Both the position numbers and the translations under genes were made by a program. DNA of 64,000 bases, from NCBI RefSeq assembly GCF_964204645.1, contig NC_134026.1:15100150-15164149 (forward strand). Direction: 5' to 3'. Positions 5,058-31,584 of the stretch are shown here, in pieces. Position 1 is the stretch's first letter. Each line of letters opens with the position of its first letter. Source of the stretch: Tubulanus polymorphus (Eukaryota; Animalia; Nemertea). The notes under the pieces are model-generated. The model did no database searches. It saw only the letters and a program-made list of their open reading frames with translations, and was not told the DNA's origin.

Positions 5058-5083
5058 AATTTCATTAATTGCTAATGACTTAA

Positions 5084-5406
5084 GCCGGACGTAGGTCGGC
5101 TTTGCGACGGCTTGTGACTGCGACGCCATTCGCCAGCGACGATTGTGTCGCAACGACTCCTCGACCTACGCTCCCTTGCGACGGGTTGCGACTGTCAGCA
5201 ACGCCAGTCACAAGGAGTCGCACGTGTTCTGCGACGTTCTTCTTTCTGCGACGCGACACGACTGTCACAACCGACCTACACGCTCTTGCGACTGGCAGAA
5301 ACTAGTCGTACACAGTCGCTGACAATCGTATCGCAACCGACTTGCGCCGAAACTTACGATGCAACGCGAGGATCGCATCGCGACGCAAGGCCGAACTACG
5401 TCCGGC
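5084..5406. mobile_element. MITE with ~25-bp TIRs flanked by TTAA
   Basis: TTAA|GCCGGACGTAGGTCGGCTTTGCG ... CGCAAGGCCGAACTACGTCCGGC|TTAA. The TSD could be TTAA or TA; superfamily not resolved. Confidence 0.8.
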
Positions 5407-10900: not shown

Positions 10901-10940
10901 AACATGTACAATAATATTGATTTTCATTAACATCATTGTT
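7919..10940 (-). pseudogene. pPolB of Polinton A, N-terminal/exonuclease/motif A part (multiple stops and frameshifts)
   Basis: C2H2-like fingers (CEVC...HLESQKH), IYGDFES (exo I), CCYC...DHDHL...GAAHEDCNL (endonuclease VII-like), RFLDSYRF, and YIDANNLYGWAM (motif A). Confidence 0.9.
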
Positions 10941-11499
10941 TTCTGTCTGGTACTCACTATCTCCAATTTATTAGGGAAAAAAATTACCCGTGGTGATGAG
11001 TGGTGTGTCGCCCTCTCGCCCTCTGGTCTGAAACCCTGATATTCCAATTACTGGTACATTGTATATTCTTTTGGTCTTTTTAATTTATCTCACCTAAATC
11101 TATTCAATCCGTTTGTGTAAGCCTACAGTATTAGTACACTGTTGGGACAAATGGAAAACATGGCATAATAACGAAATTGGCATTATAAAGAATGGAACTT
11201 TCATCAAATTTGGGTTAGATTGGGCAAATTTGTTCTCTGAAATGGCATTTAGTGAGCAATGGCAATAAAAAGGATCGCATTATAATGAACTTTGAATTTA
11301 ATAACTATAAGGAAGAGGGCCTACCTGATTCATTAACTACTGCAGCGGCTGATGTCCAACGATGTGAATTTGCATTTACTGTTGAAATGTAGGTCGTGTC
11401 AGTACCTTGAAGAACACTGCCAGCATACTGTTGAATACACGTATGCAATTGAATGAAATTTGTTAAACAATGATCAATAATATTGAAATTAAACAAATC

Positions 11500-12385
11500 A
11501 ATCCTACCAAAATAGTCAGCATGCCACAACTATGCCCATCAAGTTGTTTCTGGTGAGGCGGTTCAATTATGGACCATTCAATATCATCAATGTCATGTCT
11601 AACAAGGGCTGTGGCTCAGTAAGTCAAGTAAGACCTTCTATTGAGATGAGCAACAGTTTGGAAATTATACATACAGTAATACATTGACATCGATAGAGAA
11701 TGAATAACGCAGTTTTCATAATGATTTCTTACTTAATATTCTTCAGTGCTTGAGCTTTTTGAAAATCAGATGCTCCAAATGGATCAAGGTAGACGATTTC
11801 ATAATTTGTGGGCTTGATCATCTAATATGAATAAAAAATGCATAATTTCTAAATACTTAATATTTGACAAATAAAAACCGAAATTATCAAATAATTATAA
11901 TCCTACTTACTACCAGAACCCAATGATTACCATCCTTGTTATAGCCGCCAATGATCATATCTTTGTTTTCAAAATTTATCTAGTTATCAAATAGATTTTA
12001 TGAAAGACAGCTCAAGAGTAAATGAAAAACAAGAAAAGTTATCGAAATACTACATACTTTCTTGAATAGACTATATTTGTATCGTGACAATCGGGGTTAT
12101 TATATAAGAATCAACAACCATACAGTCATACATACTTTTTCAGCTTCAAGGGCTAGAGCCATGTTTATCACCTGAAAAAAGAGTAAAACATATTGATATA
12201 AAGTTCAATGAAAAAATGCACATGGGATGATTTATTAGCCAGTAACAATACATGTTGTCTAGAACTGTATGAGATACTAATACAAACAAGAGTTTTAAGA
12301 TCTTCCAAAACAACACACAACTTACCTCACTAGTAACATAGGAATTTAATTTCAAGGACCGCAATCCCTCATCGGTCAAGAGATG
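11500..12385 (-). pseudogene. Intron-containing Ulp1/SENP-like (C48) cysteine protease relic
   Basis: Exons bounded by GT..AG encode SLKLNSYVTSE/VINMAL, IIGGYNKD(G)NHWVLV (His; frameshifted), IVYLDPFG (Asp) and PHQKQLDGHSCG (Gln/Cys). Confidence 0.72.
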
Positions 12386-13444: not shown

Positions 13445-13642
13445 TGTCGAGAACAAGTGAGAAAAATTGAGAATTGAGTTCTAACGAACAACGTAATTAC
13501 ATTTATTTACACTACACTTTACGGATTTACATATGCTCTGCTCGCAAGAGCTGCAAAACGACAATTGCCGTACATATACCATACAGTCGATCATGCGCAC
13601 TAGTCGCGGCGCGAAAACCTTGGCGGGAAAATATTCCCGACA
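13445..13642 (-). repeat. 3' LTR of BEL/Pao retrotransposon (198 bp)
   Basis: TGTCG...CGACA ends, PPT GGGCCGGGAGTA immediately upstream on minus, AATAAA inside. Confidence 0.75.
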
Positions 13643-14533
13643 TACTCCCGGCCCAAACAGGTTGTACAAATAGACAGAAAACGAATTCCATCTAGATTAC
13701 GCCTGGTTAGATTGAAGTTACAAACTACAAATTACAAAACATGTGTGAACATAATTAATTATTACAATCGCGATAATTACGGTATCGTCGAATACACAGT
13801 TCATTGTGTCGAATTCAAACTATTCATTTCACGGATATTTTTACGTGCGATCCGCGCAGCACAGCGCTGCGGCCGGGCTGAGTGCAACTCCGAACCGAGT
13901 TCCGGACCACGTTCGACTGTCCGTTGATTCACCTCCGAAGGACCGGCATTTACCTCTAGCGGATAGAGTTTTGTTAACGGTCTACTAGTCGTTCCTGTTG
14001 TGGTTTTAAGTAACGCTGAACGCACGACGTTGTCCCGGCCGAAATTTAAACCGTTGACTCTCCCAAGCCTGCAGTCGACTCGCGGTCCATCATTATGAAT
14101 TAGGACGACGTCCCCAACGCGAACGCTTTAACTCCGACTTCAGGAATTAACGCAAACGAGTCTCACGCAAAGCTGTAAGTTAGACATGTTGCCATCTTTT
14201 CACGAAATGCTGATACAGGTGAGCTCGGTGCTTAGCTCTGTATTGAATAGCTGTCTCTTTGAACTCCGGATTGCGCAGATTATCGACGTTTACGACGGAA
14301 TACGGTACGGTTGATTTACGGCGTCCCTGAAACAATTGGGACGGTGTTATCGGATCAGGGTCGTTTAAATCACTGGACACGTACGTCAACGACCTATCAT
14401 TTAACACCGCTTCGATTTCGGTCACTATGGTTGCATGTTCGCCTCGATCGAGTTTGTTACGATGTAGAACTTTTCTCAGTAGCCGTTTGGTCATTCCAAT
14501 TAACCTTCCCCATAGACCCCCGAACCAAGGAGC
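13643..14533 (-). pseudogene. BEL/Pao pol 3' fragment (integrase core end + DUF5641-type tail)
   Basis: APWFGGLWGRLIGMTKRLLRK, EIEAVLNDRSLTY, PITPSQL, VGDVVLIH and RPLTKLYPLE. Frameshifted and cut off abruptly at 14533. Confidence 0.88.
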
Positions 14534-14555
14534 TAGGGTTAGGGTTAGGGTTAGG
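14534..14555 (+). repeat. Interstitial telomeric tract (TTAGGG)~3.5 at the BEL/PLE junction
   Basis: TAGGGTTAGGGTTAGGGTTAGG. Confidence 0.9.
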
Positions 14556-14669
14556 TTTAGAGATAGAGGTTAGGGGACCAAACCGAAGGTTTGGAGACCC
14601 CACTAGTGCACGGGCAGCGGGTTATCCCTGTAAAAAAGTAGTGAGAGTTAATTGTTGTAGTGAGGCGGT

Positions 14670-17007
14670 CTACGGGACGTTCATGCCTCGGGGTGTGTTC
14701 GTGTCGAGTCGTCGTATCCAGTCTTGTTCGGCTGCTTCGCGGATCGGTCTCGTGGAGCCTGGTAGGTGTTGGAGACCGTACACCCGAAAGTGTTCGCGGG
14801 TGTGGTCGGCTTGGTTGAAGTGGTCCGAGACTGGAGTCGAATTCTTCGTTCTGATGCGTGAGACGTGATGAGTGACGCGTTCTCGTAGAGACATTCCGGT
14901 TTGGCCGACGTACAGCATGTTGCACTTGGTGCATTCGATGCAGTATACAATTTCACGGGTCGCGCAATTAATTGTGCTGCGGATCGCGTGCATTTTGTTG
15001 TGGCTGCGGCAAACGGTTGTTTCTCGGACGAGTGGACACGTACGACATCTCGGTGTTCTGCATTTCTTGGTGCCTCGACGTCGGGTTGACGGAGTTCTTT
15101 GAGTAGACCTGGAAATAGAAGAATTGGAAACAACGGAAGTATTTCTGTTACGATGCGGTGAAGAGGGGACTCGGGGAGGGGGTGGCTCCGTGGGTTTGAG
15201 CTGCGACGAAGTTAGGAGATCTTTGAGACTCTTGTGCTTGGTGTAGGCGGTGACCGTGGTTACCTCGTCAGACCGGCCGGTGGCCGTAGCCAGTTCCGTA
15301 AATCTGGTTTGATTTTATTTTGATGTGTCGCAGTTCGCGGTCTTTGTAGCCACGACCTCTGAGTACTTTAAGGACGGTTCCGGACGCTGCGTGTAAGTCC
15401 GAATCGTTATTGCAGATGCGCCGGAACCGGAGAATTTGACTTTTAACTATACCGGAAAATGTGTGTTTAGGGTGAAACGAGGATCGATGTAGTAATTGAT
15501 GCGAATCGGTTGGTTTGAAGTAGACTTTGGTGTCTACTGTGCCACTTGTCTCGAATTGCGGGCCTTTGAAAGTGGTTACGTCCAGGAAGTTGACGCTGGT
15601 GTCGCTGATTTCGAACTTGAGTTTGATGGATCGGCTCACTGTTTGTAGGACGTCGATGAATTGCATCAACGTTTCGCGGCCGTGTTCCCAAACTATGTAG
15701 ATGTTGTCGATGAACCGAGCGTATAGCGATGGTTGGAGTTCGCTTCTGGACAGACCTTCTTTTTCCCATTCGGCTACAAAGATATTGGCATAAGAAGGAG
15801 CAAAACGCTTACCCATTGCGGTACCTTTTACCTGTAAATATGTGTTTTCGTTAAAGTTAAAGTCGTTTTTCTTCAGGCTGATTTCGAGTAGTTTCAGCAG
15901 CTCGGCATCCGGGCGTCCCGGGTTTGGGTTATCTCGGAGAGCTTGTCGGATGCTGGCGATACCCTCTTCGTGGGGGATGTTGGTGTAGAGCGAATCGATG
16001 TCCATGGTGACGAGTAACGCATCGGCGCTAAATTGTTTACCGGCCAAAATATCTAGAAAGTGGTTGGTATCTTTGACGTACGACGGGTGACCGCGGGCGA
16101 TCGGCTGCAAATAGTAGTCGATCCATTCCGAAATTTCGTAGGTTTCGGAGCCGCAGTCGGAGACGATCGGTCTCCCCGGCGGTACGCGATCGGGTACCGT
16201 CCACTTCTCGCGTTCTTTATGGATTTTGGGAAGCAGATAGAACTGCCTCTGTTTCGGATTATCGGGCGGTAATAGATATTCGGCGGTTTTTAGCGGGATG
16301 ATTTTTCGTCGAGCCATATTTTCGATGATTTCGCGAATTTCTTCCCCGGTCTGTTCGAAGATCGGTTGCTGCAGCGGCTGATAATACTCGAGATCGGCTA
16401 GTTGGAGCATGGCTTCGTGGACGTAGTCGTCGCGGTCCATGATAACCGTAGCGGAACCCTTATCGGCGGCTTTGATGACAATATTAGTGTTGTCACGCAG
16501 CTGCTGGAGGGCTTCGCGTTCCTGTTTAGTGAGGTTATCATTTACGCGACGCGTATCCCTGGTTTGTTGAGCCAATTCGTGCGCGTCGTTGCAGAACCCG
16601 GCGATTACTGGTTCTATTTCATCCGGAGCCCAACTGCTGGGCAGACGGAAACGCGGAGCCTCGCGGTCCGGTTTGTCTCGGAAGTGATGGTCGAGTTTCA
16701 CTAGCCGGTTGAATCGGCACACTCCCTTGGTGCGCTCGGTCGCGGCGGCATCAGAACCGATTTTTGGAGTCGGGCAATAAGTGAGGCCCTTTCGGAGTAG
16801 CTGATGTTGCGCCGGACTTAGGCGGAGTGAACGTGTGAGGTTGACCACCGGGCTCCCGAGAGCGGTGACCGGATCGCGTCGCGCTTGGTTTGGTGCCGGT
16901 TCTTCGTGTTCGTCGGACCTGGAAATGGAAGAAATCAGAGAAGCATTGGTTAATTCCGGTTGATTTAACTCACCAATAGTGGACCCGTTGGTCTCACTAA
17001 TACTTAG
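14670..17007 (-). pseudogene. PLE unit 1 ORF2 (RT + GIY-YIG), disrupted
   Basis: Catalytic FIDD changed to FIDN. A ~120-bp deletion with filler near 15310 causes a frameshift before the GIY-YIG domain. Confidence 0.9.
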
Positions 17008-18563
17008 TTTAAACCACTGAGCCAGTGGTCCAGCAGGGTGTTAGCTGTACCACGGTTCCAGTGGATCCCGTCTCCAACAACTCTGAAGCGTCGATCATCG
17101 ATGGGTGGTATCGCGGTGACGTCGTCGTGATTCTCGAGGAATTCGTTGAACTTCCGGGCGAACTGCTGGTGTTCGCGGGTCGTGTTGAGTTGAACGAAGT
17201 GGACGAACGAGTGCTGATACTTCTTGACTGCGGCGTTGATCAGGCGCTGTGTGGTCTTCCTGGCGGTCGCTTCGAAGTTGTTGTCGCGGTTGTTGATTCC
17301 GACGCTGATGATCACCGTATCCGGGCGATCTCGGCGCTCCGGTACAGCATCGATCAGGTCGGCGAGATGAGCTATCTTGCAGCCGGGGAAGCTCTCGATC
17401 TGGACGTCATCCGGACGGCGGCTTGATGTGATGTTACTCAGATTTGAGTCACCAATCACCAGAATGGGTCGCCGGGTTGGTGGCAGACTCCAATCCTGTT
17501 TCTTCCGACCCGTATTCGGATGACGGCGAACTTCCTGGGGCGCCATCGGTCTCGGTGTTGGCGTCGGACTTCGCGCTGGCAGTAGGCGCCCTGGTGACCT
17601 GTAATGAGACGGAGAGCTGGAAAGAGAAGAAGAGAGAGACGGCGTCGGACTGCTGGTTGGTGCGGTCGGCGTTCTCTGCGGCGGCGGCGGCGTCGGGTTT
17701 CGAGGCGGCGGCGTCGGACTTCTCGGTGGCGTCGGACTTCTTGGTGGCGGCGGCGGCGTCGGCATCGGACTTCTCGGTGGTGGCGCCATTCTGGTTGGTG
17801 GCGTCCTGGTGACATCCGCGTAGCTTCTCGGTGACCTGGAATCAGAAAAAGAAGGAGGCGCTGTGGGCGCGGCGGGCGCGGCTGCGGTTGGTGCAGGCGT
17901 CCTCGGCGTCGCGGGCTTTCGAATCTTCCGGCTCGGTCTCGGCGGCGGACGAATCTTCGGCTCCGTGGGTGCCTCCTGGTGGTGTGACCTGAAATGAGAA
18001 GGGGAAGAAGGTGGGTTAGATAGGACATTTCTGAGTTTGTCAGACAGAGCCTGACCGCGGAATTTCGACCGCAAATCCAGCGCGATGTTGAAAAGCCGGA
18101 TCGTTCCGGGGCTCAGACGGGAGCCGAAATTCCTCCGGGCCCATGTCAGGGCGACATCCTGTGCTGATAGACAGTCCGGCAGAGGATCACCCATTAGCTC
18201 AACAAATGTGGCAGCGTAATGGATGGTCAGCTCTTTCGAAACTGTCTCCATCCAGACGTCCGCGGCAGCGTGCAGCTGCACCGTTACTGCTTCGGTGCAA
18301 GCCGCCGGCCGCAGGAACATCTTCAGATGGTCCTTCTTCCTCCGAATCGCTTTCGGACCAGAGCTCAACTGGGCAAGGTGGTGCGCCACTTGAAGAGCTC
18401 TATAATAGGTTTTCGGCGACATCCCGGGTTGCTGGTGTCGCTCAGGGCGTCCTCCGCCCTTGCTGGTCTTCTCAGCTGGTGGTCGTTTCTTCTTTCGAGT
18501 AGATCGCTCCATTGACAGATATTTCGGCGAGGTTGCCTTCGTCAGTGTCAGTGCAGGAATCAT
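17004..18563 (-). CDS. PLE unit 1 ORF1: basic N-terminus, Pro/Ser-rich repeats, C-terminal SGNH/GDSL hydrolase
   Basis: ILVIGDSN (block I), SFPGCK (II), ISVGINN (III), GDGIHW (V); RSPTPPP repeats; 519 aa open. Confidence 0.85.
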   Translation of the reverse strand: MIPALTLTKATSPKYLSMERSTRKKKRPPAEKTSKGGGRPERHQQPGMSPKTYYRALQVAHHLAQLSSGPKAIRRKKDHLKMFLRPAACTEAVTVQLHAAADVWMETVSKELTIHYAATFVELMGDPLPDCLSAQDVALTWARRNFGSRLSPGTIRLFNIALDLRSKFRGQALSDKLRNVLSNPPSSPSHFRSHHQEAPTEPKIRPPPRPSRKIRKPATPRTPAPTAAAPAAPTAPPSFSDSRSPRSYADVTRTPPTRMAPPPRSPMPTPPPPPRSPTPPRSPTPPPRNPTPPPPQRTPTAPTSSPTPSLSSSLSSSPSHYRSPGRLLPARSPTPTPRPMAPQEVRRHPNTGRKKQDWSLPPTRRPILVIGDSNLSNITSSRRPDDVQIESFPGCKIAHLADLIDAVPERRDRPDTVIISVGINNRDNNFEATARKTTQRLINAAVKKYQHSFVHFVQLNTTREHQQFARKFNEFLENHDDVTAIPPIDDRRFRVVGDGIHWNRGTANTLLDHWLSGLN

Positions 18564-19259
18564 GCTGAACTAGCAGCAGCAGCAGATAAAAAAGACAAAC
18601 GCGCGGAGCGCGTTTTTAATGCTCGAGAGTGGTGGCCACTCTCCTACATTCAGGACGCGTAGGTGCATGATTATTTGCTTGATATGATGATAGGTATATG
18701 AGTTGAACTATTATGAGATGAACTAAGGGGGATGTGGGTGGTGTGATATTTGTGTGAGTGTGAAGGTACTGGTGGAAGGATTCAAACAAAGGTACATACA
18801 GAACGGACAGTTTTTATTTTTTAGGCGTTTTTGTTTGGTTCGGTCCTTATCAGGAGTTTGTTAGTGATTAGTTATAATATTTTTTTTTTTTTTTTTTTTT
18901 TTTTCTATAAATAGTGATTAATATAATACGTATATATCACAAGAGTCTATGATATAATATATGGTAGATATATATGTATATAATATGATACACAAAAATA
19001 GTGATTTTCCTCCGTTAAGGGGAGTCGCGATATAGTTAGAATACTTTGTCAATTACTATATACAAAACTTATAATTTCTTAGAAATGTTAATAAGAGTAT
19101 ATAGTTCTACTGCATATAGTTCGGTTCACGTGATGTGTTGTGTAAGGAGTAGCGACCTAGATACGGGCTACCTATATAGTTCTTGTAACACAAAGAAATC
19201 TTCCATTCAATTCTCCGACTACGCGGGTGTCGGTTCGTAGTAGAGTACACGCTATAGAG

Positions 19260-22013
19260 TTATAGAATTGACTTAAACGCTTCCACGATGTCTGAAGACG
19301 GCCATGGACTCGAAATATCGTAAAAGACACTCCTTAGTATCGGGTTATTTCGGTTGGAATTTAGGTAATTTTTCGTTAAGAGTTTAAAGCGCTGTTCCAC
19401 AGTTTCTATTCGAGCTTGCTTATGTAGGTCTGCCGTTCTTGTATAGCGCGGTTGGCCTAGAATGATTCGTAAGCATTTATTTTGGTGTATTTGAAGGCGG
19501 TCTAACTGACTACATGGGCAAGTTACCAGTATCGGAGCTCCGTATTCATAGATTGATCGAATGAGTAATTTAAAAGCAGTGAGTATGTATTCCATTTTTA
19601 CGCGGTTTCGTTTCAAAATAGCTAGTATTCCAATTCTTTTATTTGCCTTAATTAATCTCTCTGTTATTTCCAGATTCCAGCGTAAATTAGACGAAAAAGT
19701 AATTCCGAGGAATTTGGTAGAATTTGATAGCGGTATTTGTTGGCCGTGAACAGTGTGCTCAGTGTATGGGTCGGTATTTATTAGGCGACTAAAGTGTATA
19801 CTAACACATTTAAGCGCGTTTACTTTTAGCCTCCACATGTCACTCCATTGAGTTAGTTTGTCTATCGATTTTTGATGGAGATTTTCGATTGTTTTAGTTT
19901 TTACATTGTGCGTGTTCCATAGACTCATATCGTCTGCGAACAATGACGATTGACTATAATGACTAGCTTTAATTGTATCCGAGGGAAAATCGTTTATATA
20001 GATGATAAAAAGTGTCGGCGAGAAAATCCCTCCTTGAGGGACTCCAGCGTTTATTTGCCTTGGCTGGCTAATACACCCTTCATTAGCGACTTTAAAAGTT
20101 CGACCCTGTAGATAGTTTTTAAGTAAGAGCTTAAAGTTGGTTGGAATAGATAAATGATTAATTTTGTAGATAATTCCGTCGTGCCAAAGTTTATCGAACG
20201 CTTTCTCTAGGTCGAAAAATGTAGCACGCGTGCATTGCCGACGTTTTAGGCCTTTAGCGATATCATGAGACATTTTTAATATTTGATCTATGGTCGAATG
20301 TCCTTTTCGAAAACCAGCTTGTATTTCGGTAAAGAAGTTGGTATTTTCTAAGTAATCTGTTAATTTATTGTTCATGATTTTTTCGAAAATTTTGCCGATC
20401 GAGTTGGTTAAACTGATAGGACGCAAATTTTTGCAAAGTGTAGCATCTTTGCCGGCTTTTGGAATCATAGTAATTTTCGCAGACTTCCAGAATGATATAT
20501 AGTAGCCATTTCTTTGGCAGTAGTTAAAAATGTGACATAGGTGGGTTAAAAATATCGAAGGACAATTTTTAATAATCGCGTTCGTGATTCTATTTTCTCC
20601 GGGTGCTTTATTAAGTTTCAACCGTTTGATATAGCGTTTTATGTCTAGTTCAGTAATTGTTTCGTTTAATATATGACCCGTGTCTTCTTCAGTATTTTCG
20701 TATACGAAGTTTCTATTGGATTCTTCTACGAAACGTTTATGTTGATCGCTGAAGTTTGGATTAGTAGGCGTTTGAAAAACGTCGAATAAAAAGTCGGCGT
20801 ATAGTTCGACGATATCTTTATCGTTACTCGCGGTTTGATCGTTATAAGCTAAATTCGAAATAATGTTTTTTTTTATCAACGTTACGTTAATGTTTTTAAT
20901 ACCTCGCCAGAATTTACTCGAGTTCGGATTCGATGTATTTATGTCATCTAGTAGTTTTTTAGTCTTGTTATTTTTGTTGTCTCGCATAAGTTTTCTAATT
21001 TCAAGAGTTAATCTATTATATTGTGATTTTAAATAAGGATGACGCGTTTTAACGTATTCTCGTTTTAAATAACGTCGTCGTTTAATTATTAATTCTATAT
21101 TACGAGGTAAGCGGTCAACTCGTTTCGATCTTTTATTATTTTCCATGTTATTTTGTCTTTTAATTTCGTTAATTATTTCTAATTCTATTTTGCTGTAAAT
21201 ATTTTCCACCTGCTCGTTAGTAGTTAGATTTGTTGTATCGATCGCTGAGAGCTTGTCAGATACGTTGTCGTGGAATTTTGACCAGTCGATATTTCTCGTA
21301 GACAGTAAGTCGGTATATAGTTCGCGTTCGATGACTTTCGGACGCGTAGAAATATTTATTAAAATTGGTCGGTGATCACTATCGACGCTATCGCAAACAT
21401 GAAAAGAGTTTACTTTAGGGAATATGTGCGAACTACAAAGCGCTCTATCTAGAATATCAGTGTGTCCTCTCACGCGGTAATCATAATAGGTATGGTCTTT
21501 TGTATTTAATGAAATGAGACCGTGCGTATTAATAATGTTCGTTAGATTAATTCCGGCTGTATTAGTCGTACGGTTACCGAGTATCGGGTGTTTAGCGTTC
21601 AAATCACCCAAAATGAAAAAATTTTGATTCGATCGTTCAATGACTTCTACAAATTGTTGTTCGAGAATTTTTGCAGGTGGGCAATAAACCCCTATGACAT
21701 TGAAAGTACTGTTATCGTTATTTTTCACCGATAAAGCTATATATTCAGTTGAGTCGCTGTTAAAATTAAGAGTCAGTTGTTCGATAAACAGGTCACGGTT
21801 GTACAGAGCCATTAAACCCCCTCAGGATTTCCCTGTCCTCGGCTTATGGATTTTCTTATAATTTTTCGGATTAAAATTTATCGTTTTGCATTTAGTTTCT
21901 GCTACGAAAAGAATATCGATATTTTTATTCAAAAGTAATTCAGTTACTTCTGGCAATTTTTGCTTCACGCCGTTTATGTTTAAATAACATATATTCAGAG
22001 TAGACTTAGCCAT
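19260..22013 (-). pseudogene. LINE ORF2: AP endonuclease + reverse transcriptase, one in-frame TGA at 21822-21824
   Basis: ICYLNING, FVAETK, GDLNAKH and SDHRP (APE); LRPISL, QAGFR, DLEKAFD, GVPQGG and LFADD (RT). ORFs 21822-22013 and 19260-21812 are in the same frame. No RNase H seen. Confidence 0.92.
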
Positions 22014-22084
22014 GAGGAAAAGTTAGACAATTGTTTAAAAGAAAGTTAATGTGTTAGATTAAAATCAGTACATCGCTTACGATT

Positions 22085-22807
22085 TTATTTAGCTAGATTT
22101 GTGTCGCTAGCAGATAACGGTCTCGTTATTTTTATCTTACTCAGCCGGTGTGAGTTTTTCCCGACGGTATGTTCGTATATATCTTTACCGCTGATTTTTA
22201 AGTTAGTATGATCTAATGTGCTTTCGCTTATCCTCGCACAGATGTCGGATAGGCTATTTTCTTTGTTCATACGTACTCTGTAAATTATGTCTGCAATTAG
22301 CGATAGAAATGATGTTTCGTTTAGTATAATGATATTATTCGGTGGAGGGCTTTCTTTCGGTTTATCTAGTGAACTTCTACGTTTCGGTATAGGTCTTTGG
22401 TTTTTATTTTGTTCCGATGAAAAGGGTTTCTCGGATACAGATTGTTTTTTCTCAGATACTGTTTTTTTCTTTCGTGGTGTTGGTATCGGTTTCCTACGCT
22501 CTTTCGTTTCACTCGGTCTAGAGTTGGATTTCGACCTCGACCTCGACCTAGATCTCTCTCGTTGTTTCTTTTTAATTTCTTCCTGCACAAATGTGCAGGC
22601 TTTGTCGAAACTGCGGTGTTCTCCACCGCAGTTCGAACAAACGTAATTTTCTTTTATTTTACACTCATAGGTTTGGTGAAAGTGGGCGCACTTCGCGCAA
22701 ATTGCTTTGTCTTCTGTGCAGTTATATTGATTATGCCCAAACATCTGGCATTTCCTACATTGGAGTAGTGTTGGGCTGCGTCTATAAGCTACGCATTTCT
22801 TCCTCAC
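22085..22807 (-). CDS. LINE ORF1 (gag-like) C-terminal part with three CCHC knuckles
   Basis: CRKCQMFGHNQYNC, CAKCAHFHQTYEC, CSNCGGEHRSFDKAC, then an RS-rich basic tract. 5'-truncated. Confidence 0.88.
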   Translation of the reverse strand: MRKKCVAYRRSPTLLQCRKCQMFGHNQYNCTEDKAICAKCAHFHQTYECKIKENYVCSNCGGEHRSFDKACTFVQEEIKKKQRERSRSRSRSKSNSRPSETKERRKPIPTPRKKKTVSEKKQSVSEKPFSSEQNKNQRPIPKRRSSLDKPKESPPPNNIIILNETSFLSLIADIIYRVRMNKENSLSDICARISESTLDHTNLKISGKDIYEHTVGKNSHRLSKIKITRPLSASDTNLAK

Positions 22808-22822
22808 ATCATGCTGAACTAG

Positions 22823-25021
22823 GATTAGACACGGGTTTTTATACACGCAGCGCGCAACAAGTGAACAGTATTTGAGTTAGAAGTTAAGTGACCATATGAG
22901 ACCTTGTGATCTAGACTAATTGTACTTCTGTGATCAAGCTAATAGACAAACTAGGGGTCTGACTAATTATGCCTTTGATCCAGAGTGACTAGAAAACAGC
23001 ACTAATTATGGCCCTTGATCTAGCTGTTGAATAGTTTGCTTTGATGTATAGTTCTAAAGATCTAAAGAACGGCGTGTCTAATATAGAATTGAAAAGTTTA
23101 TTTCGATATAACCTGATAAATACTCAAAGTGTTTTCTATAAAGAGAAATCTAGAATATGTATTATTAATATACGTGAACCGGAATGTTCGAAATATGTCC
23201 GAGTTCAGTTTCAAAATTGCTTAATTCCTAATTAGTTTAGATGCGTTAATTAGCGGTGCGCGGCCGAGGCGTATTCCGATATACGCGTGTATACTAAATA
23301 GTCGTAAATGGTGAAATCCGGTTCTTAGTTAATCAAGTTTTCTCCGTATTCTAAAGCTTTTAAGAGCGGATTTTGAAATATCTACGCGGTATTCTACCGA
23401 AAATTGGATGAATTAGACAGCGCGGCGTCGGCGATTTAGTAGGAAGTTATAACCCGTAAGATCTAAATTACTGAGTGAGCGCGGGTGGTTAATTAGCCCT
23501 AATTATGGGTGACGAGTTTTGATAGAAATGTCTTACTAATACGTCTGTTTTAATTCTAAGTTCTTAAATATAATTCTATTAGATAAACTACGCTTATTTA
23601 GAGTTATTAGGATCGAGTAAAGCTATGTGAACTTGAACATGTGACAAATATATTCAGACCGGAGCGCGGGTATTCAGTAAATCGGTTTAAGCTTGCGTAG
23701 TTTGAGTGGTTCAAAAACACTATGATCTCTTCTTTAATCCGAAGGTTGAAATATATACGTGATATAAAACTCTTTTTGAATCGGGAATATTGGGCTGTGT
23801 TCTTTGAAAAAAAAAAACTGATGAGTTTGAAGGCGTCGTAACTGCGATTTTGTATAGAATTGAGTCGGATAATTAGTCAAGAGGCGCAGGTGGCCGATCG
23901 GTCACTAATTATGAGTGACTCGTAAACAGTGATTGATGTCCGTGGACTATTATTTATCCTATAAACTTCTTATACTTCTACAACCTATAGTGCGGTTTTT
24001 GAATATAGCTACTAATACTTTTGAGCGATCTCATTAGAATTGTTATGCGAAAATAAACTGTCTGTTTTAGAGAAATTTGAAACTTGACACCCGGGTCTAT
24101 ATAGAGTATGTTCCAAGAGTTGGCGCGTAGATACGATAATAGTTAATTAGGACGTAGCGGGTTAGGTCCCCGACCGAACGTTATAGATTAAACGGAGGTT
24201 AATTAGGGTGCCGCGGGTTCGAGTCCCGACCAGGCGCCGTTTAGTAATTGAATAGTTCTATTCTAAATGTTTTTTACCTATTCTGGATTCCTTTTAATTC
24301 TGAATCTTTGACGGATACAATAGTACTTTTCAGATGTTTCTACGATATAATCTTAGTGCCGACGCATATTTTCAAAATAAATAAGAGCGGTGGACAGGTT
24401 ACCGGTATCTAACGCGGGGCACCGGCAACCTGTCAGTACTAGCGGTTAATTTCGGAGCGGCGGGTACGGTTCCCGAGTATTCTCCGGAGCTTAATTCGGG
24501 TGCCGCGGGTTCGAGTCCCGATCAGGCGCGCCGTTTTAGTAATTGAGTATATTCTTACCTATTCTAGATTCCCTTTCTTTCTAAATTTATAATAGATTAA
24601 TTAATACTTTTCGGGTGTTTCTATGATATAATCACAGTGCTGACGCATATTTTCGAAATAGATAATAGCGGTGGACTGGTTACCGGTTTCTATCGTCCTG
24701 GGACAGGCAACCAGTCTGTACTAGCGGTTACGGTTCGGTTCCCGATATCGCGCTTTTGTTTATTTTTCTAACTGTTTCTGATATTTGGTCTGTCTTCTTA
24801 CTTACTGAATTTCGATTGAGTTTTCAAAGTAAAGCAGAGAGAACTAATTAAAAGATAAAAGGTTGATGATTCCTGTGGAGCTTGTGATCTTGGAGTTTGT
24901 TTTGTACTCTGTCTCTGAGCGGGTTTCTGCTTCAGGCGACGGAGGATGATTCTGCAAATAGATTGATGATTAATAATTAATCAGTTAAGATAATTTACGA
25001 GGGAAACCTGGCACGGGCTAA
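22823..25021 (-). promoter_or_regulatory. PLE unit 1 long non-coding leader (~2.2 kb), probably intron-containing
   Basis: Repeated at 29139-31284; no long ORF. Donor-like sites CA|GTAAGT (24805) and AG|GTAAGA (24558); acceptor-like TTCAG just before the ORF1 ATG; internal ~290-bp duplication. Confidence 0.6.
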
Positions 25022-25142
25022 GGTTAGGTTTAGAGATAGAGGTTAGGGGACCAAACCGAAGGTTTGGAGACCCCACTAGTGCACGGGCAGCGGGTTATCC
25101 CTGTAAAAAAGTAGTGAGAGTTAATTGTTGTAGTGAGGCGGT

Positions 25143-27602
25143 CTACGGGACGTTCATGCCTCGGGGCGTGTTCGTGTCGAGTCGTCGTATCCAGTCTTGT
25201 TCGGCTGCTTCGCGGATCGGTCTCGTGGAGCCTGGTAGGTGTTGGAGACCGTACACCCGAAAGTGTTCGCGGGTGTGGTCGACTTGGTTGAAGTGGTCCG
25301 AGACTGGAGTCGAATTCTTCGTTCTGATGCGTGAGACGTGATGAGTGACGCGTTCTCGTAGAGACATTCCGGTTTGGCCGACGTACAGCATGTTGCACTT
25401 GGTGCATTCGATGCAGTATACAATTTCACGGGCCGCGCAATTAATTGTGCTGCGGATCGCGTGCATTTTGTTGTGGCTGCGGCAAACGGTTGTTTCTCGG
25501 ACGAGTGGACACGTACGACATCTCGGTGTTCTGCATTTCTTGGTGCCTCGACGTCGGGTTGACGGAGTTCTTTGAGTAGACCTGGAAATAGAAGAATTGG
25601 AAACAACGGAAGTATTTCTGTTACGATGCGGTGAAGAGGGGACTCGGGGAGGGGGTGGCTCCGTGGGTTTGAGCTGCGACGAAGTTAGGAGATCTTTGAG
25701 ACTCTTGTGCTTGGTGTAGGCGGTGACCGTGGTTACCTCGTCAGACCGGCCGGTGGCCGTAGCCAGTTCCGTAAATCTGGTTCGGATGTTACGGGCTAGG
25801 GTTCGGTTGGCTTCGGAGTGAGGTAAGATAAGCGGTAAACGCTTTTTCGGCGGTTCGTCGGCCCGTTGTTGTTCTCGTAGATCTCGTTCGGCGTGGTGCC
25901 GTAGAGCTTGGCTTTTGATGTGTCGCAGTTCGCGGTCTTTGTAGCCACGACCTCTGAGTACTTTAAGGACGGTTCCGGACGCTGCGTGTAAGTCCGAATC
26001 GTTATTGCAGATGCGCCGGAACCGGAGAATTTGACTTTTAACTATACCGGAAAATGTGTGTTTAGGGTGAAACGAGGATCGATGTAGTAATTGATGCGAA
26101 TCGGTTGGTTTGAAGTAGACTTTGGTGTCTACTGTGCCACTTGTCTCGAATCGCGGGCCTTTGAAAGTGGTTACGTCCAGGAAGTTGACGCTGGTGTCGC
26201 TGATTTCGAACTTGAGTTTGATGGATCGGCTCACTGTTTGTAGGACGTCGATGAATTGCATCAACGTTTCGCGGCCGTGTTCCCAAACTATGTAGATGTC
26301 GTCGATGAACCGAGCGTATAGCGATGGTTGGAGTTCGCTTCTGGACAGACCTTCTTTTTCCCATTCGGCTACAAAGATATTGGCATAAGAAGGAGCAAAA
26401 CGCTTACCCATTGCGGTACCTTTTACCTGTAAATATGTGTTTTCGTTAAAGTTAAAGTCGTTTTTCTTCAGGCTGATTTCGAGTAGTTTCAGCAGCTCGG
26501 CACCCGGGCGTCCCGGGTTTGGGTTATCTCGGAGAGCTTGTCGGATGCTGGCGATACCCTCTTCGTGGGGGATGTTGGTGTAGAGCGAATCGATGTCCAT
26601 GGTGACGAGTAACGCATCGGCGCTAAATTGTTTACCGGCCAAAATATCTAGAAAGTGGTTGGTATCTTTGACGTACGACGGGTGACCGCGGGCGATCGGC
26701 TGCAAATAGTAGTCGATCCATTCCGAAATTTCGTAGGTTTCGGAGCCGCAGTCGGAGACGATCGGTCTCCCCGGCGGTACGCGATCGGGTACCGTCCACT
26801 TCTCGCGTTCTTTATGGATTTTGGGAAGCAGATAGAACTGCCTCTGTTTCGGATTATCGGGCAGTAATAGATATTCGGCGGTTTTTAGCGGGATGATTTT
26901 TCGTCGAGCCATATTTTCGATGATTTCGCGAATTTCTTCCCCGGTCTGTTCGAAGATCGGTTGCTGCAGCGGCTGATAATACTCGAGATCGGCTAGTTGG
27001 CGCATGGCTTCGTGGACGTAGTCGTCGCGGTCCATGATAACCGTGGCGGAACCCTTATCGGCGGCTTTGATGACAACATTAGTGTTGTCACGCAGCTGCT
27101 GGAGGGCTTCGCGTTCCTGTTTAGTGAGGTTATCATTTACGCGACGCGTATCCCTGGTCTGTTGAGCCAATTCGTGCGCGTCGTTGCAGAACCCGGCGAT
27201 TACTGGTTCTATTTCATCCGGAGCCCAACTGCTGGGCAGACGGAAACGCGGAGCCTCGCGGTCCGGTTTGTCTCGGAAGTGATGGTCGAGTTTCACTAGC
27301 CGGTTGAATCGGCACACTCCCTTGGTGCGCTCGGTCGCGGCGGCATCAGAACCGATTTTTGGAGTCGGGCAATAAGTGAGGCCCTTTCGGAGTAGCTGAT
27401 GTTGCGCCGGACTTAGGCGGAGTGAACGTGTGAGGTTGACCACCGGGCTCCCGAGAGCGGTGACCGGATCGCGTCGCGCTTGGTTTGGTGCCGGTTCTTC
27501 GTGTTCGTCGGACCTGGAAATGGAAGAAATCAGAGAAGCATTGGTTAATTCCGGTTGATTTAACTCACCAATAGTGGACCCGTTGGTCTCACTAATACTT
27601 AG
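25143..27602 (-). CDS. PLE ORF2: reverse transcriptase + Cys linker + GIY-YIG endonuclease (Neptune-like); no ATG start, frame open back to the ORF1 stop
   Basis: KAADKG, YLLPKIHK, GRPIVS, DIDSLYTNIP, GTAMG, RFIDD, FLD; CRTPRCRTC linker; IVYCIEC..C...YVGQT...R..HH, E.DWI..LDT..PRGMN. Confidence 0.95.
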   Translation of the reverse strand, partial: LSISETNGSTIGELNQPELTNASLISSISRSDEHEEPAPNQARRDPVTALGSPVVNLTRSLRLSPAQHQLLRKGLTYCPTPKIGSDAAATERTKGVCRFNRLVKLDHHFRDKPDREAPRFRLPSSWAPDEIEPVIAGFCNDAHELAQQTRDTRRVNDNLTKQEREALQQLRDNTNVVIKAADKGSATVIMDRDDYVHEAMRQLADLEYYQPLQQPIFEQTGEEIREIIENMARRKIIPLKTAEYLLLPDNPKQRQFYLLPKIHKEREKWTVPDRVPPGRPIVSDCGSETYEISEWIDYYLQPIARGHPSYVKDTNHFLDILAGKQFSADALLVTMDIDSLYTNIPHEEGIASIRQALRDNPNPGRPGAELLKLLEISLKKNDFNFNENTYLQVKGTAMGKRFAPSYANIFVAEWEKEGLSRSELQPSLYARFIDDIYIVWEHGRETLMQFIDVLQTVSRSIKLKFEISDTSVNFLDVTTFKGPRFETSGTVDTKVYFKPTDSHQLLHRSSFHPKHTFSGIVKSQILRFRRICNNDSDLHAASGTVLKVLRGRGYKDRELRHIKSQALRHHAERDLREQQRADEPPKKRLPLILPHSEANRTLARNIRTRFTELATATGRSDEVTTVTAYTKHKSLKDLLTSSQLKPTEPPPPRVPSSPHRNRNTSVVSNSSISRSTQRTPSTRRRGTKKCRTPRCRTCPLVRETTVCRSHNKMHAIRSTINCAAREIVYCIECTKCNMLYVGQTGMSLRERVTHHVSRIRTKNSTPVSDHFNQVDHTREHFRVYGLQHLPGSTRPIREAAEQDWIRRLDTNTPRGMNVP

Positions 27603-27608
27603 TTTAAA
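27572..27608 (-). promoter_or_regulatory. Candidate -1 programmed ribosomal frameshift signal (also at 16977-17013)
   Basis: GGT TTA AAC TAA gives an in-phase U_UUA_AAC heptamer, followed by a 7-nt spacer and hairpin TAGTGAGACC-AACG-GGTCCACTA. The -1 frame is ORF2. Confidence 0.8.
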
Positions 27609-29128
27609 CCACTGAGCCAGTGGTCCAGCAGGGTGTTAGCTGTACCACGGTTCCAGTGGATCCCGTCTCCAACAACTCTGAAGCGTCGATCATCGATGGG
27701 TGGTATCGCGGTGACGTCGTCGTGATTCTCGAGGAGTTCGTTGAACTTCCGGGCGAACTGCTGGTGTTCGCGGGTCGTGTTGAGTTGAACGAAGTGGACG
27801 AACGAGTGCTGATACTTTTTGACTGCGGCGTTGATCAGGCGCTGTGTAGTCTTCCTGGTGGTCGCTTCGAAGTTGTTGTCGCGGTCGTTGATTCCGACGG
27901 TGATGATCACCGTATCCGGGCGATCTCGGCGCTCCGGTACAGCATCGATCAGGTCGGCGAGATGAGCTATCTTGCAGCCGGGGATGCTCTCGATCTGGAC
28001 GTCATCCGGACGGCGGCTTGATGTGATGTTACTCAGATTTGAGTCACCAATCACCAGAATGGGTCGCCGGGTTGGTGGCAGACTCCAATCCTGTTTCTTC
28101 CGACCCGTATTCGGATGACGGCGAACTTCCTGGGGCGCCATCGGTCTCGGTGTTGGCGTCGGACTTCGCGCTGGCAGTAGGCGCCCTGGTGACCTGTAAT
28201 GAGACGGAGAGCTGGAAAGAAAAGAAGAGAGAGACGGCGTCGGACTGCTGGTTGGTGCGGTCGGCGTTCTCTGCGGCGGTGGCGTCGGACTTCTCGGTGG
28301 CGTCGGACTTCTTGGTGGCGGCGGCGGCGTCGGCATCGGACTTCTCGGTGGTGGCGCCATTCTGGTTGGTGGCGTCCTGGTGACATCCGCGTAGCTTCTC
28401 GGTGACCTGGAATTAGAAAAAGAAGGAGGCGCTGTGGGCGCGGCGGGCGCGGCTGCGGTTGGTGCAGGCGTCCTCGGCGTCGCGGGCTTTCGAATCTTCC
28501 GGCTCGGTCTCGGCGGCGGACGAATCTTCGGCTCCGTGGGTGCCTCCTGGTGGTGTGACCTGAAATGAGAAGGGGAAGAGGGTGGGTTAGATAGGACATT
28601 TCTGAGTTTGTCAGACAGAGCCTGACCGCGGAATTTCGACCGCAAATCCAGCGCGATGTTGAAAAGCCGGATCATTCCGGGGCTCAGACGGGAGCCGAAA
28701 TTCCTCCGGGCCCATGTCAGGGCGACATCCTGTGCTGATAGACAGTCCGGCAAAGGATCACCCATTAGCTCAACAAATGTGGCAGCATAATGGATGGTCA
28801 GCTCTTTCGAAACTGTCTCCATCCAGACGTCCGCGGCAGCGTGCAGCTGCACCGTTACTGCTTCGGTGCAAGCCGCCGGCCGCAGGAACATCTTCAGATG
28901 GTCCTTCTTCCTCCGAATCGCTTTCGGACCAGAGCTCAACTGGGCAAGGTGGTGCGCCACTTGAAGGGCCCTGTAGTAGCTTTTCGGCGACATCCCGGGT
29001 TGCTGGTGTCGCTCAGGGCGTCCTCCGCCCTTGCTGGTCTTCTCAGCTGGTGGTCGTTTCTTCTTAGATCGCTCCATTGACAGATATTTCGGCGAGGTTG
29101 CCTTCGTCAGTGTCAGTGCAGGAATCAT
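27599..29128 (-). CDS. PLE unit 2 ORF1: Pro-rich + SGNH/GDSL hydrolase (509 aa)
   Basis: IGDSN, PGCK, VGIND and DGIH motifs; near-identical to 17004-18563. Confidence 0.85.
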   Translation of the reverse strand: MIPALTLTKATSPKYLSMERSKKKRPPAEKTSKGGGRPERHQQPGMSPKSYYRALQVAHHLAQLSSGPKAIRRKKDHLKMFLRPAACTEAVTVQLHAAADVWMETVSKELTIHYAATFVELMGDPLPDCLSAQDVALTWARRNFGSRLSPGMIRLFNIALDLRSKFRGQALSDKLRNVLSNPPSSPSHFRSHHQEAPTEPKIRPPPRPSRKIRKPATPRTPAPTAAAPAAPTAPPSFSNSRSPRSYADVTRTPPTRMAPPPRSPMPTPPPPPRSPTPPRSPTPPPQRTPTAPTSSPTPSLSSFLSSSPSHYRSPGRLLPARSPTPTPRPMAPQEVRRHPNTGRKKQDWSLPPTRRPILVIGDSNLSNITSSRRPDDVQIESIPGCKIAHLADLIDAVPERRDRPDTVIITVGINDRDNNFEATTRKTTQRLINAAVKKYQHSFVHFVQLNTTREHQQFARKFNELLENHDDVTAIPPIDDRRFRVVGDGIHWNRGTANTLLDHWLSGLN

Positions 29129-29138
29129 GCTGAACTAG

Positions 29139-31284
29139 GATTAGACACGGGTTTTTATACACGCAGCGCGCAACAAGTGAACAGTATTTGAGTTAGAAGT
29201 TAAGTGACCATATGAGACCTTGTGATCTAGACTAATTGTACTTCTGTGATCAAGCTAATAGACAAACTAGGGGTTTGACTAATTATGCCTTTGATCCAGA
29301 GTGACTAGAAAACAGCACTAATTATGGCCCTTGATCTAGCTGTTGAATAGTTTATTTCGATATAACTTAATAAATACTCAAAGTGTTTTCTATAAAGAGA
29401 AATCTAGAATATGTATTATTAATATACGTGAACCGGAAAGTTCGAAATATGTCCGAATTCAGTTTCAAAATTGCTTAATTCCTAATTAGTTTAGATGCGT
29501 TAATTAGCGGTGCGCGGCCGAGGCGTTTTCCGATATACGCGTGTTTACTAAATAGTCGTAAATGGTGAAATCCGGTTATTAGTTAATCAAGTTTTCTCCC
29601 TATCTAAAGCTTTTAAGAGCGGATTTTGAAATATCTACGCGGTATTCTACCGAAAATTGGATGAATTAGACAGCGCGGCGTCGGCGATTTAGTAGGAAGT
29701 TATAACCCGTAAGATCTAAATTACTGAGTGAGCGCGGGTGGGTAATTAGCCCTAATTACGGGTGACGAGTTTTGATAGAAAAGTCTTACTAATACGTCTG
29801 TTTTAATTCTAAGTTCTTAAATATAATTCTATTAGATGAACTACGCTTATTTAGAGTTATTAGGATCGAGTAAAGCTATGTATAGGGGAGCCGATCTTGA
29901 ACATGTGTCAAATATATTCAGACCGGAGCGCGGGTATTCAGTAAATCGGTTTAAGCTTGCGTAGTTTGAGTGGTTCAAAAACACTATGATCTCTTCTTTA
30001 ATCCGAAGGTTGAAATATATACGTGATATAAGACTCTTTTTGAATCGGGAATATTGTGCCGTGTTCTTTGATACAAACTGATGAGTTTGAAGGCGTCGTA
30101 ACTGCGATTTTGTATAGAATTGAGTCGGATAATTATAAATTAGTCAAGAGGCGCAGGTGGCCGATCGGTCACTAATTATGAGTGACTTGTAAACAGTGAT
30201 TGATGTCCGTGGACTATTATTTATCCTCTAAACTTCTTATACTTCTACAACCTATAGTGCGGTTTTAGAATATAGCTACTAATACTTTTAAGCGATGTCA
30301 TTAGAATTGTTATCCGAAAATAAACTGTCTGTTTTAGAGAAATTTGAAACTTGACACCCGGGTCTTTATAGAGTATGTTCCAAGAGTTGGCGCGTAGATA
30401 CGATAATAGTTAATTAGGACGTAGCGGGTTAGGTCCCCGACCGAACGTTATAGATTAAACGGAGGTTAATTAGGGTGCCGCGGGTTCGAGTCCCGACCAG
30501 GCGCCGTTTAGTAATTGAATAGTTCTATTCTAAATGTTTTTACCTATTCTGGATTCCTTTTAATTCTGAATCTTTAACGGATACAATAGTACTTTTCAGA
30601 TGTTTCTACGATATAATCTTGGTGATACGCATATTTTCAAAATAAATAAGAGCGGAGGACTGGTTACCGGTATCTAACGCGGGGCACCGGCAACCGGTCA
30701 GTACTAGCGGTTAATTTCGGAGCGGCGGGTATGGTTCCCGAGTATTCTCCGGAGCTTAATTCGGGTGCCGCGGGTTCGAGTCCCGATCAGGCGCGCCGTT
30801 TTAGTAATTGAGTATATTCTTACCTATTCTAGATTCCCTTTATTTCTAAATTTATAATAGATTAATTAATACTTTTCGGGTGTTTCTATGATATAATCTC
30901 AGTGCTGACGCATATTTTCGAAATAGATAATAGCGGTGGACTGGTTACTGGTTTCTATCGTCCTGGGACAGGCAACCAGTCTGTACTAGCGGCGGGTTCG
31001 GTTCCCGATATCGCGCTTTTGTTTATTTTTCTAACTGTTTCTGATATTTGGTCTGTCTTCTTACTTACTGAATTTCGATTGAGTTTTCAAAGTAAAGCAG
31101 AGAGAACTAATTAAAAGATAAAAGGTTGATGATTCCTGTGGAGCTTGTGATCTTGGAGTTTGTTTTGTACTCTGTCTCTGAGCGGGTTTCTGCTTCAGGC
31201 GACGGAGGATGATTCTGCAAATAAATTGATGATTAATAATTAATCAGTTAAGATAATTTACGAGGGAAACCTGGCACGGGCTAA
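29139..31284 (-). promoter_or_regulatory. PLE unit 2 long non-coding leader
   Basis: Copy of 22823-25021. Confidence 0.6.
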
Positions 31285-31584
31285 GGTTAGGTTTAGAGAT
31301 AGAGGTTAGGGGACCAAACCGAAGGTTTGGAGACCCCACTAGTGCACGGGCAGCGGGTTATCCCTGTAAAAAAGTAGTAAGAGTTAATTGTTGTAGTGAG
31401 GCGGTCTACGGGACGTTCATGCCTCGGGGCGTGTTCGTGTCGAGTCGTCGTATCCAGTCTTGTTCGGCTGCTTCGCGGATCGGTCTCGTGAAGCCTGGTA
31501 GGTGTTGGAGACCGTACACCCGAAAGTGTTCGCGGGTGTGGTCGACTTGGTTGAAGTGGTCCGAGACTGGAGTCGAATTCTTCG
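31285..31584 (-). repeat. PLE upstream pseudo-LTR (3' 300 bp of a further 5'-truncated unit)
   Basis: Near-identical to 25022-25321 (end of GIY-YIG + 3' tail); abuts Polinton B polB. Confidence 0.9.

Follow-up and report, generated by a model that had tools for sequence, protein, structure and literature searches.

The 64,000-nucleotide window analysed here (Tubulanus polymorphus, Nemertea; contig NC_134026.1, positions 15,100,150 to 15,164,149; all positions below are those of the window) contains on its minus strand, between 14542 and 31584, copies of a single Penelope-like element (PLE) arranged in tandem, with a period of 6263 bp. One of its copies, unit 2 (29128-25015), carries two overlapping open reading frames (ORFs), the first encoding a domain of the SGNH hydrolase type and the second a reverse transcriptase (RT) followed by a GIY-YIG endonuclease (EN), and its coding linkers hold a series of strong signals resembling 3' splice acceptors. 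The presence of several such sites in the coding linkers of one PLE family is what is new here; the modular in-frame use that the initial annotation had proposed for them is mostly unsupported. The most likely explanation, to which we give about even odds, is that these are true spliceosomal 3' acceptors, kept at the nucleotide level in one Neptune-type PLE family, and the acceptor-like signals would likely let the element make shortened RNAs.

The five coding sites and a sixth in the 3' tail were all found on the minus strand with the coordinates and sequences first reported for them, and the location of the coding sites in inter-domain linkers holds. They were scored with a weight matrix built from textbook splice-site frequencies rather than one trained on host introns (splice points are marked below by a slash). 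Site 1 (28557-28590, exon start 28559; 10.8 bits), at the end of the N-terminal domain of ORF1, consists of a CTAAC branch-like word 28 nt upstream, a pyrimidine tract and TTTCAG/GTC, and site 2 (28404-28434, exon start 28406) reaches 10.5 bits. Site 3 (28191-28240) is a tandem, in which a strong AG at 28211 (CAG/CTC, 12.3 bits) stands 18 nt before a weaker one at 28193 (CAG/GTC, 4.9 bits), both in phase 2. Site 4 (27511-27545, exon start 27513; 8.4 bits, with TTAAC at -32) lies in the linker between the frameshift site and the RT, and site 5 (25579-25612, exon start 25581; 8.4 bits) in the linker before the CX4CxxC/GIY-YIG module. The non-coding tail acceptor (25098-25125, exon start 25100; 9.7 bits) shows TTAAC, six T and ACAG/GGATAA. 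Together, 28211, 28559, 28406, the tail site (31363/25100), 25581 and 27513 are the seven best acceptors of the unit, the next one scoring 6.6 bits. All five coding sites split an AG/G arginine codon in phase 2, giving the peptides FRS, SRS, YRS, SRS and SRS; all five have C at -3 and G at +1, both of them synonymous positions, while +4 varies, and three of the five contain AGGTCA. The initial annotation had described all of them as YAG/GTC: five such AGs do exist, but the best AG of the third site is the CAG/CTC at 28211, so that this uniformity was in part a choice of AG. Branch-like TAAC words occur at -21 to -40 in four of the seven sites (28559, 27513, 25581 and 25100), none being in the range of 18-40 nt at 28406, 28211 or 28193, and T-rich islands end at these AGs in 3/3 cases in ORF1 and 2/4 in ORF2.

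The excess of this motif over coding chance is real and statistically striking. The ORFs contain five sites of at least 7 bits against a mean of 0.18 under synonymous shuffling with the protein kept and of 0.10 under codon permutation, and in neither case did any of 1000 shuffles reach five. The bare word YAGGTC is enriched weakly (31 of 1000 shuffles reach five), and the antisense of the coding strand has no site of at least 7 bits. Among the 19 Arg-Ser dipeptides, the five encoded with AGG are exactly these sites, the other 14 using other arginine codons, and T is the third letter in 17 of the 29 four-fold degenerate codons of the tracts versus 89 of 568 elsewhere, in regions chosen post hoc. 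A pyrimidine tract, YAG and a following G, the features of a U2-type 3' acceptor, are thus present beyond what the protein imposes. Also in favour of acceptors are the lengths of the two linkers that hold sites 4 and 5, both greater than in relatives, two host-style sites in the window that lie within two mismatches of the 14-nt consensus of the ladder, and the C-terminus of the RefSeq model of a 96%-identical copy, which reads as a 25736-to-25100 splice would.

The common phase of the five coding sites would have a probability of about 0.02 if they were independent (calculated by hand from the phases seen under permutation). A Ser-rich linker, however, results from phase 2 only, the two remaining frames of the tracts encoding peptide that is Phe/Leu-rich or broken by stops; with the protein fixed, 66% of the null sites fall in phase 2. 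A common phase therefore requires no selection for in-frame splicing and is probably a by-product of the serine frame. The same observations, phase 2 being the only frame that is Ser-rich, stop-free and non-hydrophobic, favour a wholly passive origin, in which Ser-rich low-complexity linkers, grown by slippage and by internal duplication of an S-x-x-R-S unit, mimic acceptors and any splicing is noise. This explanation, which we hold to be unlikely but deserving of real weight, also agrees with the near-duplication of sites 1 and 3 (SSPSH[FY]RS), with the SSISRS common to sites 4 and 5 and with the absence of the ladder in relatives. It does not account for the T-rich third positions, the AGG codons and the C at -3, none of which the protein needs, nor for homology among the sites that stops at the acceptor core, nor for the branch-like words and a non-coding tail site of the same anatomy. 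If the sites are genuine acceptors, one tract-CAG-GTC module may have been copied within the element, or have arisen repeatedly, and have survived only in the frame that reads as a Ser-rich linker, which would give the common phase.

Several results weigh against genuine acceptors. The matrix gives only -1.8 to 3.2 bits to four hand-picked introns of a nearby gene remnant (two other host-style sites score 9.6 and 7.5 bits). The tracts agree with one another at 6-12 of 17 positions, where 5.8 are expected; the sites are perhaps not independent, and the shuffle test would then be inflated. Relatives were taken as 78 metagenome loci with an RT ORF (33-56% RT identity), three of which were dropped for lack of the RT motif in one frame; in the remaining 75, all distant, coding sites of at least 7 bits number none in 59 loci, one in 14 and two in 2, with phases distributed 4/9/5. 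The 14-nt consensus is found in 0 of the 78 loci, a peptide proxy is absent from 149 of 150 ORF1 relatives (one site in total, versus three in this ORF1), and the 60%-identical homolog P0002 has no EN-linker motif. Besides, the first AUG downstream of 28559 and 28406, at 28386, is off-frame and the in-frame one (28360) comes second, so that sites 1 and 2 would need leaky scanning, and the RefSeq model of the 96%-identical copy, which may be an ab initio prediction, has an N-terminus that does not use 27513. Loss of the motifs in relatives, which the initial annotation had named as a refutation, is thus seen at this distance, none of the 75 loci having more than two sites, and judged from these loci the ladder is a lineage-specific addition restricted to this PLE family. 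A tail acceptor within 150 nt was present in 6 of 60 loci. The sites do recur in unit 1, at 17988, 17835, 17598, 16918, 15108 and 14627, but that copy is 98.2-99.3% identical to unit 2 and brings no independent conservation. Within the family, majority differences in the tracts exchange pyrimidine for pyrimidine or keep the branch-like word (28221, 28580 and 28414), and a minority variant has five differences immediately upstream of 25597, of which four are silent and leave a pyrimidine in place; this preservation is weak, transitions dominating anyway.

Contigs from sequencing runs were compared with the element (runs X1, X3 and X4 over 25140-31400, where X5 gave no contig; X4 and X2 over 25040-29450); none of these runs is recorded as RNA, and X4 appears RNA-like from its low, patchy cover. 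Minus-strand GT-AG ends were seen in none of the 11 and 12 joints listed, which is no evidence either way as contigs drop rare forms, and no loose end started exactly at an acceptor among the 18 of 89 and 12 of 65 listed. Sites 27513 and 25581 are each crossed without splicing by one X4 contig (27477-27684 and 25415-25664, respectively), which again says nothing of rare forms. Another X4 contig opens with 33 foreign letters and enters the element at 27508, 5 nt beyond acceptor 27513; in two more, 27148 and 27477 are both connected to position 26731 through non-templated letters. None of these is of the GT-AG type.

The donors bear on the products that the element could make. The strongest are 30823 (5.9 bits) and 27568 (4.4 bits), followed by 26426, 26407, 31064, 30543, 28054 and 25736; within the ORFs, donors are neither enriched nor depleted. 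The 2.15-kb leader (29129-31277) contains donors 31068/31064, 30823 and 30543 and an acceptor-like site at 29389, and no open AUG was found upstream of its donors in any phase (six donors scoring at least 0.5). The good donors of the ORFs are of phase 0 or 1 in their own ORF, and phase-2 routes exist only from weak donors read from off-frame AUGs (28054 from AUG 28599; 26635; 26350). Because the leader donors have no AUG and the ORF donors are in phase 0 or 1, the element could not fuse ORF1 to RT-EN in frame with its own donors, and the in-frame splicing ladder first envisaged finds no cognate phase-2 donor other than these weak ones. Two of its proposed products fare no better: an RT-EN made without frameshifting would meet four off-frame AUGs after 27513 before the in-frame fifth, an EN made alone would meet two after 25581 before the in-frame third, and both would need a foreign exon. 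For the third, an SGNH-only product, an anatomical route does exist, the first AUG after 28211/28193 (28141) being in frame and opening a 180-aa SGNH domain; shortened forms of ORF1 are plausible on this layout.

Two further candidate introns emerge when donors are considered. Donor 27568 (G/GTGAGT), which the initial annotation overlooked as it considered acceptors only, defines with acceptor 27513 a candidate intron of 55 nt (27514-27568), just after the frameshift hairpin; a weaker donor at 27592 makes it 79 nt, the four host introns measured being 80-95 nt. If the 55-nt candidate were removed, ribosomes that had frameshifted would continue in the wrong frame (32 aa). A phase-0 donor in the second half of ORF2 (25730-25739, intron start 25736, GAG/GTAACC), joined to 25100, reads ...GRSDEG-stop, that is an RT without EN, and this is the exact C-terminus of the RefSeq model of the 96% copy.

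We propose that upstream donors of the element, or donors of host genes, would be spliced to the sites, yielding shorter RNAs that skip a hammerhead-like motif. This minimal motif (29078-29115, minus strand; CUGACGA, stem II, GAAA and a palindromic stem III) overlaps the start of ORF1, its predicted cut lying 5 nt before AUG 29077, and is repeated in unit 1 (18513-18550, minus strand). Pattern and fold fit a minimal hammerhead with the architecture described in PMC4209133; Rfam found no hammerhead, only two chance matches to tmRNA fragments. Of the 28 relatives with sufficiently long upstream DNA, 10 have a similar motif near the beginning of ORF1, and such a motif occurs anywhere in 27 of 78 loci. 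As it lies downstream of all leader donors and upstream of all coding acceptors, any splice from a leader donor to these acceptors would remove the putative ribozyme. Splicing from the leader to the three ORF1 sites would then give capped, uncleavable RNAs from which AUGs 28360 and 28141 would open Pro-SGNH or SGNH alone; splicing of the element's own donors to 27513 and 25581 would break the frame and so switch RT-EN off; and the 25736-to-25100 splice would give RT without endonuclease. PLEs keep introns through retrotransposition, for which an antisense or unspliced template may be responsible (PMC3846280), and Penelope requires its intron at a post-transcriptional stage (PMC2377424), so that splice sites on the sense strand may be cheaper for PLEs than for other retroelements. 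A bolder version would make these splices a switchboard, the leader-ORF1 splices bypassing the ribozyme for esterase-only messages, the small intron turning RT-EN off and the 25736-25100 splice giving an EN-less RT on an RNA ending in telomere-complementary repeats, thereby toggling the element between genome-wide insertion and a telomere-attaching, Athena-like behaviour; we consider it quite improbable.

The position of the motif, between all leader donors and the ORF acceptors, would also suit trans-splicing: hammerhead cleavage would leave an uncapped, donor-less RNA whose orphan acceptors could receive a spliced leader (SL). We give this only the slightest chance, since the cleavage itself is only predicted, a leader ending in AUG (phase 0), a variant that was rejected, would open no more than 46-120 aa at the sites, and our literature search, confined to article texts, found no paper linking SL trans-splicing to nemerteans. 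The main text of PMC7986045 has no match for nemertean terms either.

Acceptors could also be served by host exons, copies (often 5'-truncated) inserted in host introns being spliced into in-frame host-SGNH, host-RT-EN or host-EN fusions. In favour of such gene trapping, phase-2 joining opens 319, 268, 197-203, 789 and 145 aa at the five sites, the sites stand at domain borders, and the capture of host donors by transposable element (TE) acceptors is published (10.1101/838045; PMC10901741). In the DNA-like runs, contigs are shallower over the leader than over ORF2, which many 5'-truncated copies would explain, a weak point as there is one depth figure per contig. Phase 2 is generally the rarest intron phase, and thus a poor choice if fusion were selected; moreover, among Tubulanus models, length-limited searches found none in which a host N-terminus precedes ORF1. 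We regard gene-trap fusion as improbable.

A different nucleic-acid signal was also weighed: a protein- or RNA-binding word (TC..TT.CAGGTC), a nuclear-receptor half-site (AGGTCA, contained in three of the five sites) or a recursive splice site. The 14-mer is indeed more specific than a splice consensus needs. But there is no second half-site, the extra specificity coincides with Ser codons, and the GTC side scores -0.1 to -0.8 or lower as a donor, so that recursive splicing was rejected and we find this alternative very improbable as a whole.

The architecture of the element agrees with its assignment, already made in the initial annotation, to the PLEs, with RT followed by a C-terminal GIY-YIG as in EN-containing (EN+) PLEs and a partial tandem or pseudo-LTR arrangement (a truncated copy upstream and the 6263-bp period). 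The sequence places it as a Neptune-type PLE, a clade label that rests on architecture rather than on an RT tree against named references. ORF1 (27599-29128, minus strand; start AUG 29128 or 29077) comprises an N-terminal domain, a Pro/Ser/Arg-rich linker and the SGNH (GDSL-like) domain, in which the hydrolase blocks GDS, G, GxND and DxxH are all present; its Pfam match to Lipase_GDSL_2 is weak (E 0.0013 and 2e-4, below the cut-off both times). One ORF1 relative (P0125) has a PF08719 (NADAR) domain between the N-terminal and SGNH domains. ORF1 ends in TTTAAAC-TAA, the heptamer (27608-27602) fitting the slippery-site consensus and being followed by the stop and a hairpin (27594-27572; whole signal 27572-27608, minus strand), and ORF2 (25143-27608, minus strand) overlaps it in the -1 frame. 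A slippery site ends ORF1 in 47 of 49 two-ORF relatives, and a -1 frameshift joining ORF1 and ORF2 is predicted from the site and the frames; the folds of the frameshift and tail regions are no better than those of shuffles (z -1.2 to 0.3). PLE frameshifting in ORF1 (PMC8557442) and esterase ORFs in PLEs (PMC5408684) are already in print.

ORF2 matches RVT_1 above the Pfam cut-off (E 9e-8) and GIY-YIG 1.5 bits below it (E 4e-4). The linker before EN reads CRTPRCRTC, which has the form CX2-5CxxC common to Neptune and Nematis (PMC8557442). None of the 27 aligned homologs, P0002 included, has an EN linker as long as this one; the linker from slippery site to RT has 74 aa versus a median of 37 in 40 relatives; and no shorter ORF1 homologs were found. 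The closest ORF2 homolog is the T. polymorphus RefSeq model XP_074646585.1 (96% identity), the next best being P0002 (60%). When P0003-P0029 are set against P0002, P0013 and the ORF2 of the window, a segment 'LPL...AY.R..NL.D.L' precedes the ZnF-GIY-YIG in some and follows it in others, two domain orders which suggest that the EN module may have moved among close homologs. The 3' tail (25015-25142, minus strand) contains a hairpin and C-strand telomere-like repeats (CCTAAC units), and read ends with TTAGGG-like letters occur at its boundary. Such repeats mark the common 3' end of the element (25015-25050, 14530-14575 and 31278-31310, minus strand) and were found in 18 of 78 related loci on the C-strand and, with the same patterns, in 0 of 78 on the G-strand.

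Read along the minus strand, the array consists of a truncated copy, the 2.15-kb leader, unit 2, a second leader, a LINE and unit 1. The upstream copy (31278-31584) is 5'-truncated, retains the end of ORF2 and the tail with acceptor 31363, and acts as a pseudo-LTR. Unit 1 (14542-18573) has the same sites as unit 2 and a 122-bp replacement in ORF2; intron loss as the source of the indels between the units (6, 24 and 122 bp) was rejected on comparing both copies. The LINE (APE-RT and a zinc-knuckle ORF; 18570-22808) sits exactly at the ORF1 start of unit 1 with a 15-nt target duplication, and a hammerhead-core-like word occurs in this region at 19292 (plus strand). Each leader has two 79%-identical repeats of about 250 bp (24193-24730 and 30460-30992, plus strand), both of which carry a strong donor in sense and, in antisense, the word GGTTCGAGTCCC, which resembles a tRNA T-arm; ARAGORN called no tRNA, these repeats included, and an antisense Pol III promoter or a SINE is possible. 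Elsewhere in the window are a decayed multi-exon gene remnant (11237-12200, minus strand; introns of 80-95 nt), Ulp1-protease-like by eye, though Pfam confirmed neither this label nor the small host exons used for calibrating the matrix, and an exon-like stretch at 12866 (plus strand). Labels given by eye also cover several stretches of decayed DNA polymerase B of the Maverick/Polinton type, a part of them in inverted orientation (1-1300, 8100-11000 and 31600-61000), a 31-bp satellite (2350-5100) and a BEL/Pao-like integrase end interrupted by unit 1 (13600-14540).

Little is known about the way in which PLEs balance the expression of ORF1 and RT-EN, or about their reasons for retaining spliceosomal signals. 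Should the sites be in use, they provide six exact junction coordinates for splicing-based control in a PLE, and the predicted EN-less RT isoform would link the EN+ and telomeric EN-lacking (EN-) lifestyles; if they are unused, Ser-rich linker codons mimic acceptors and mislead gene models. Our literature search, confined to article texts, found no report of an acceptor ladder in a PLE, spliced PLE introns (PMC2377424) and spliced GDSL/env-like ORF messages (PMC5408684) being published.

Compared with known systems, the element is closest in design to the Neptune-type EN+ PLEs (Craig et al. 2021, PMC8557442; esterase ORF, PMC5408684), with which it has in common the RT, the CX2-5CxxC linker, the C-terminal GIY-YIG, the pseudo-LTR tandem, a frameshifted esterase ORF1 and a hammerhead-like motif; the five strong acceptor-like sites in coding linkers are peculiar to it, appearing neither in the 75 related loci nor in the portion of PMC8557442 covered. 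The 5' UTR intron of Drosophila virilis Penelope (PMC2377424; PMC4209133) likewise retains its spliceosomal sites when it retrotransposes; its RNA occurs both with and without the intron, which ends beside the hammerhead, a position at which our element has weak AGs (29134/29129, just before helix I). That case is a single 75-nt UTR intron with a cognate donor, shown experimentally, whereas here several putative coding acceptors are predicted from sequence and have no in-frame cognate donor. Spliced subgenomic ORF3/env messages of LTR retrotransposons, including the bdelloid GDSL ORF3 (PMC5408684; PMC4402516), arise when a 5' donor is joined to an internal acceptor, so that a downstream domain is produced by itself, which would fit the SGNH-only form, but they involve separate ORFs and our acceptors lie inside ORF1 and ORF2. 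Cryptic TE acceptors and gene traps (10.1101/838045; PMC10901741) resemble the present sites in being sense-strand acceptors able to capture host donors; those are weaker than annotated sites, whereas these are the strongest of the unit and in one phase. Finally, the Athena/Terminon EN- PLEs (PMC6431247; PMC8557442) also have C-strand telomeric repeats at their 3' end and GDSL ORFs, and the 25736-25100 splice would give an EN-less RT like theirs; in contrast to them, the element retains an intact GIY-YIG, and its hammerhead-like motif and telomere-like repeats, instead of being adjacent, are separated by about 2 kb.

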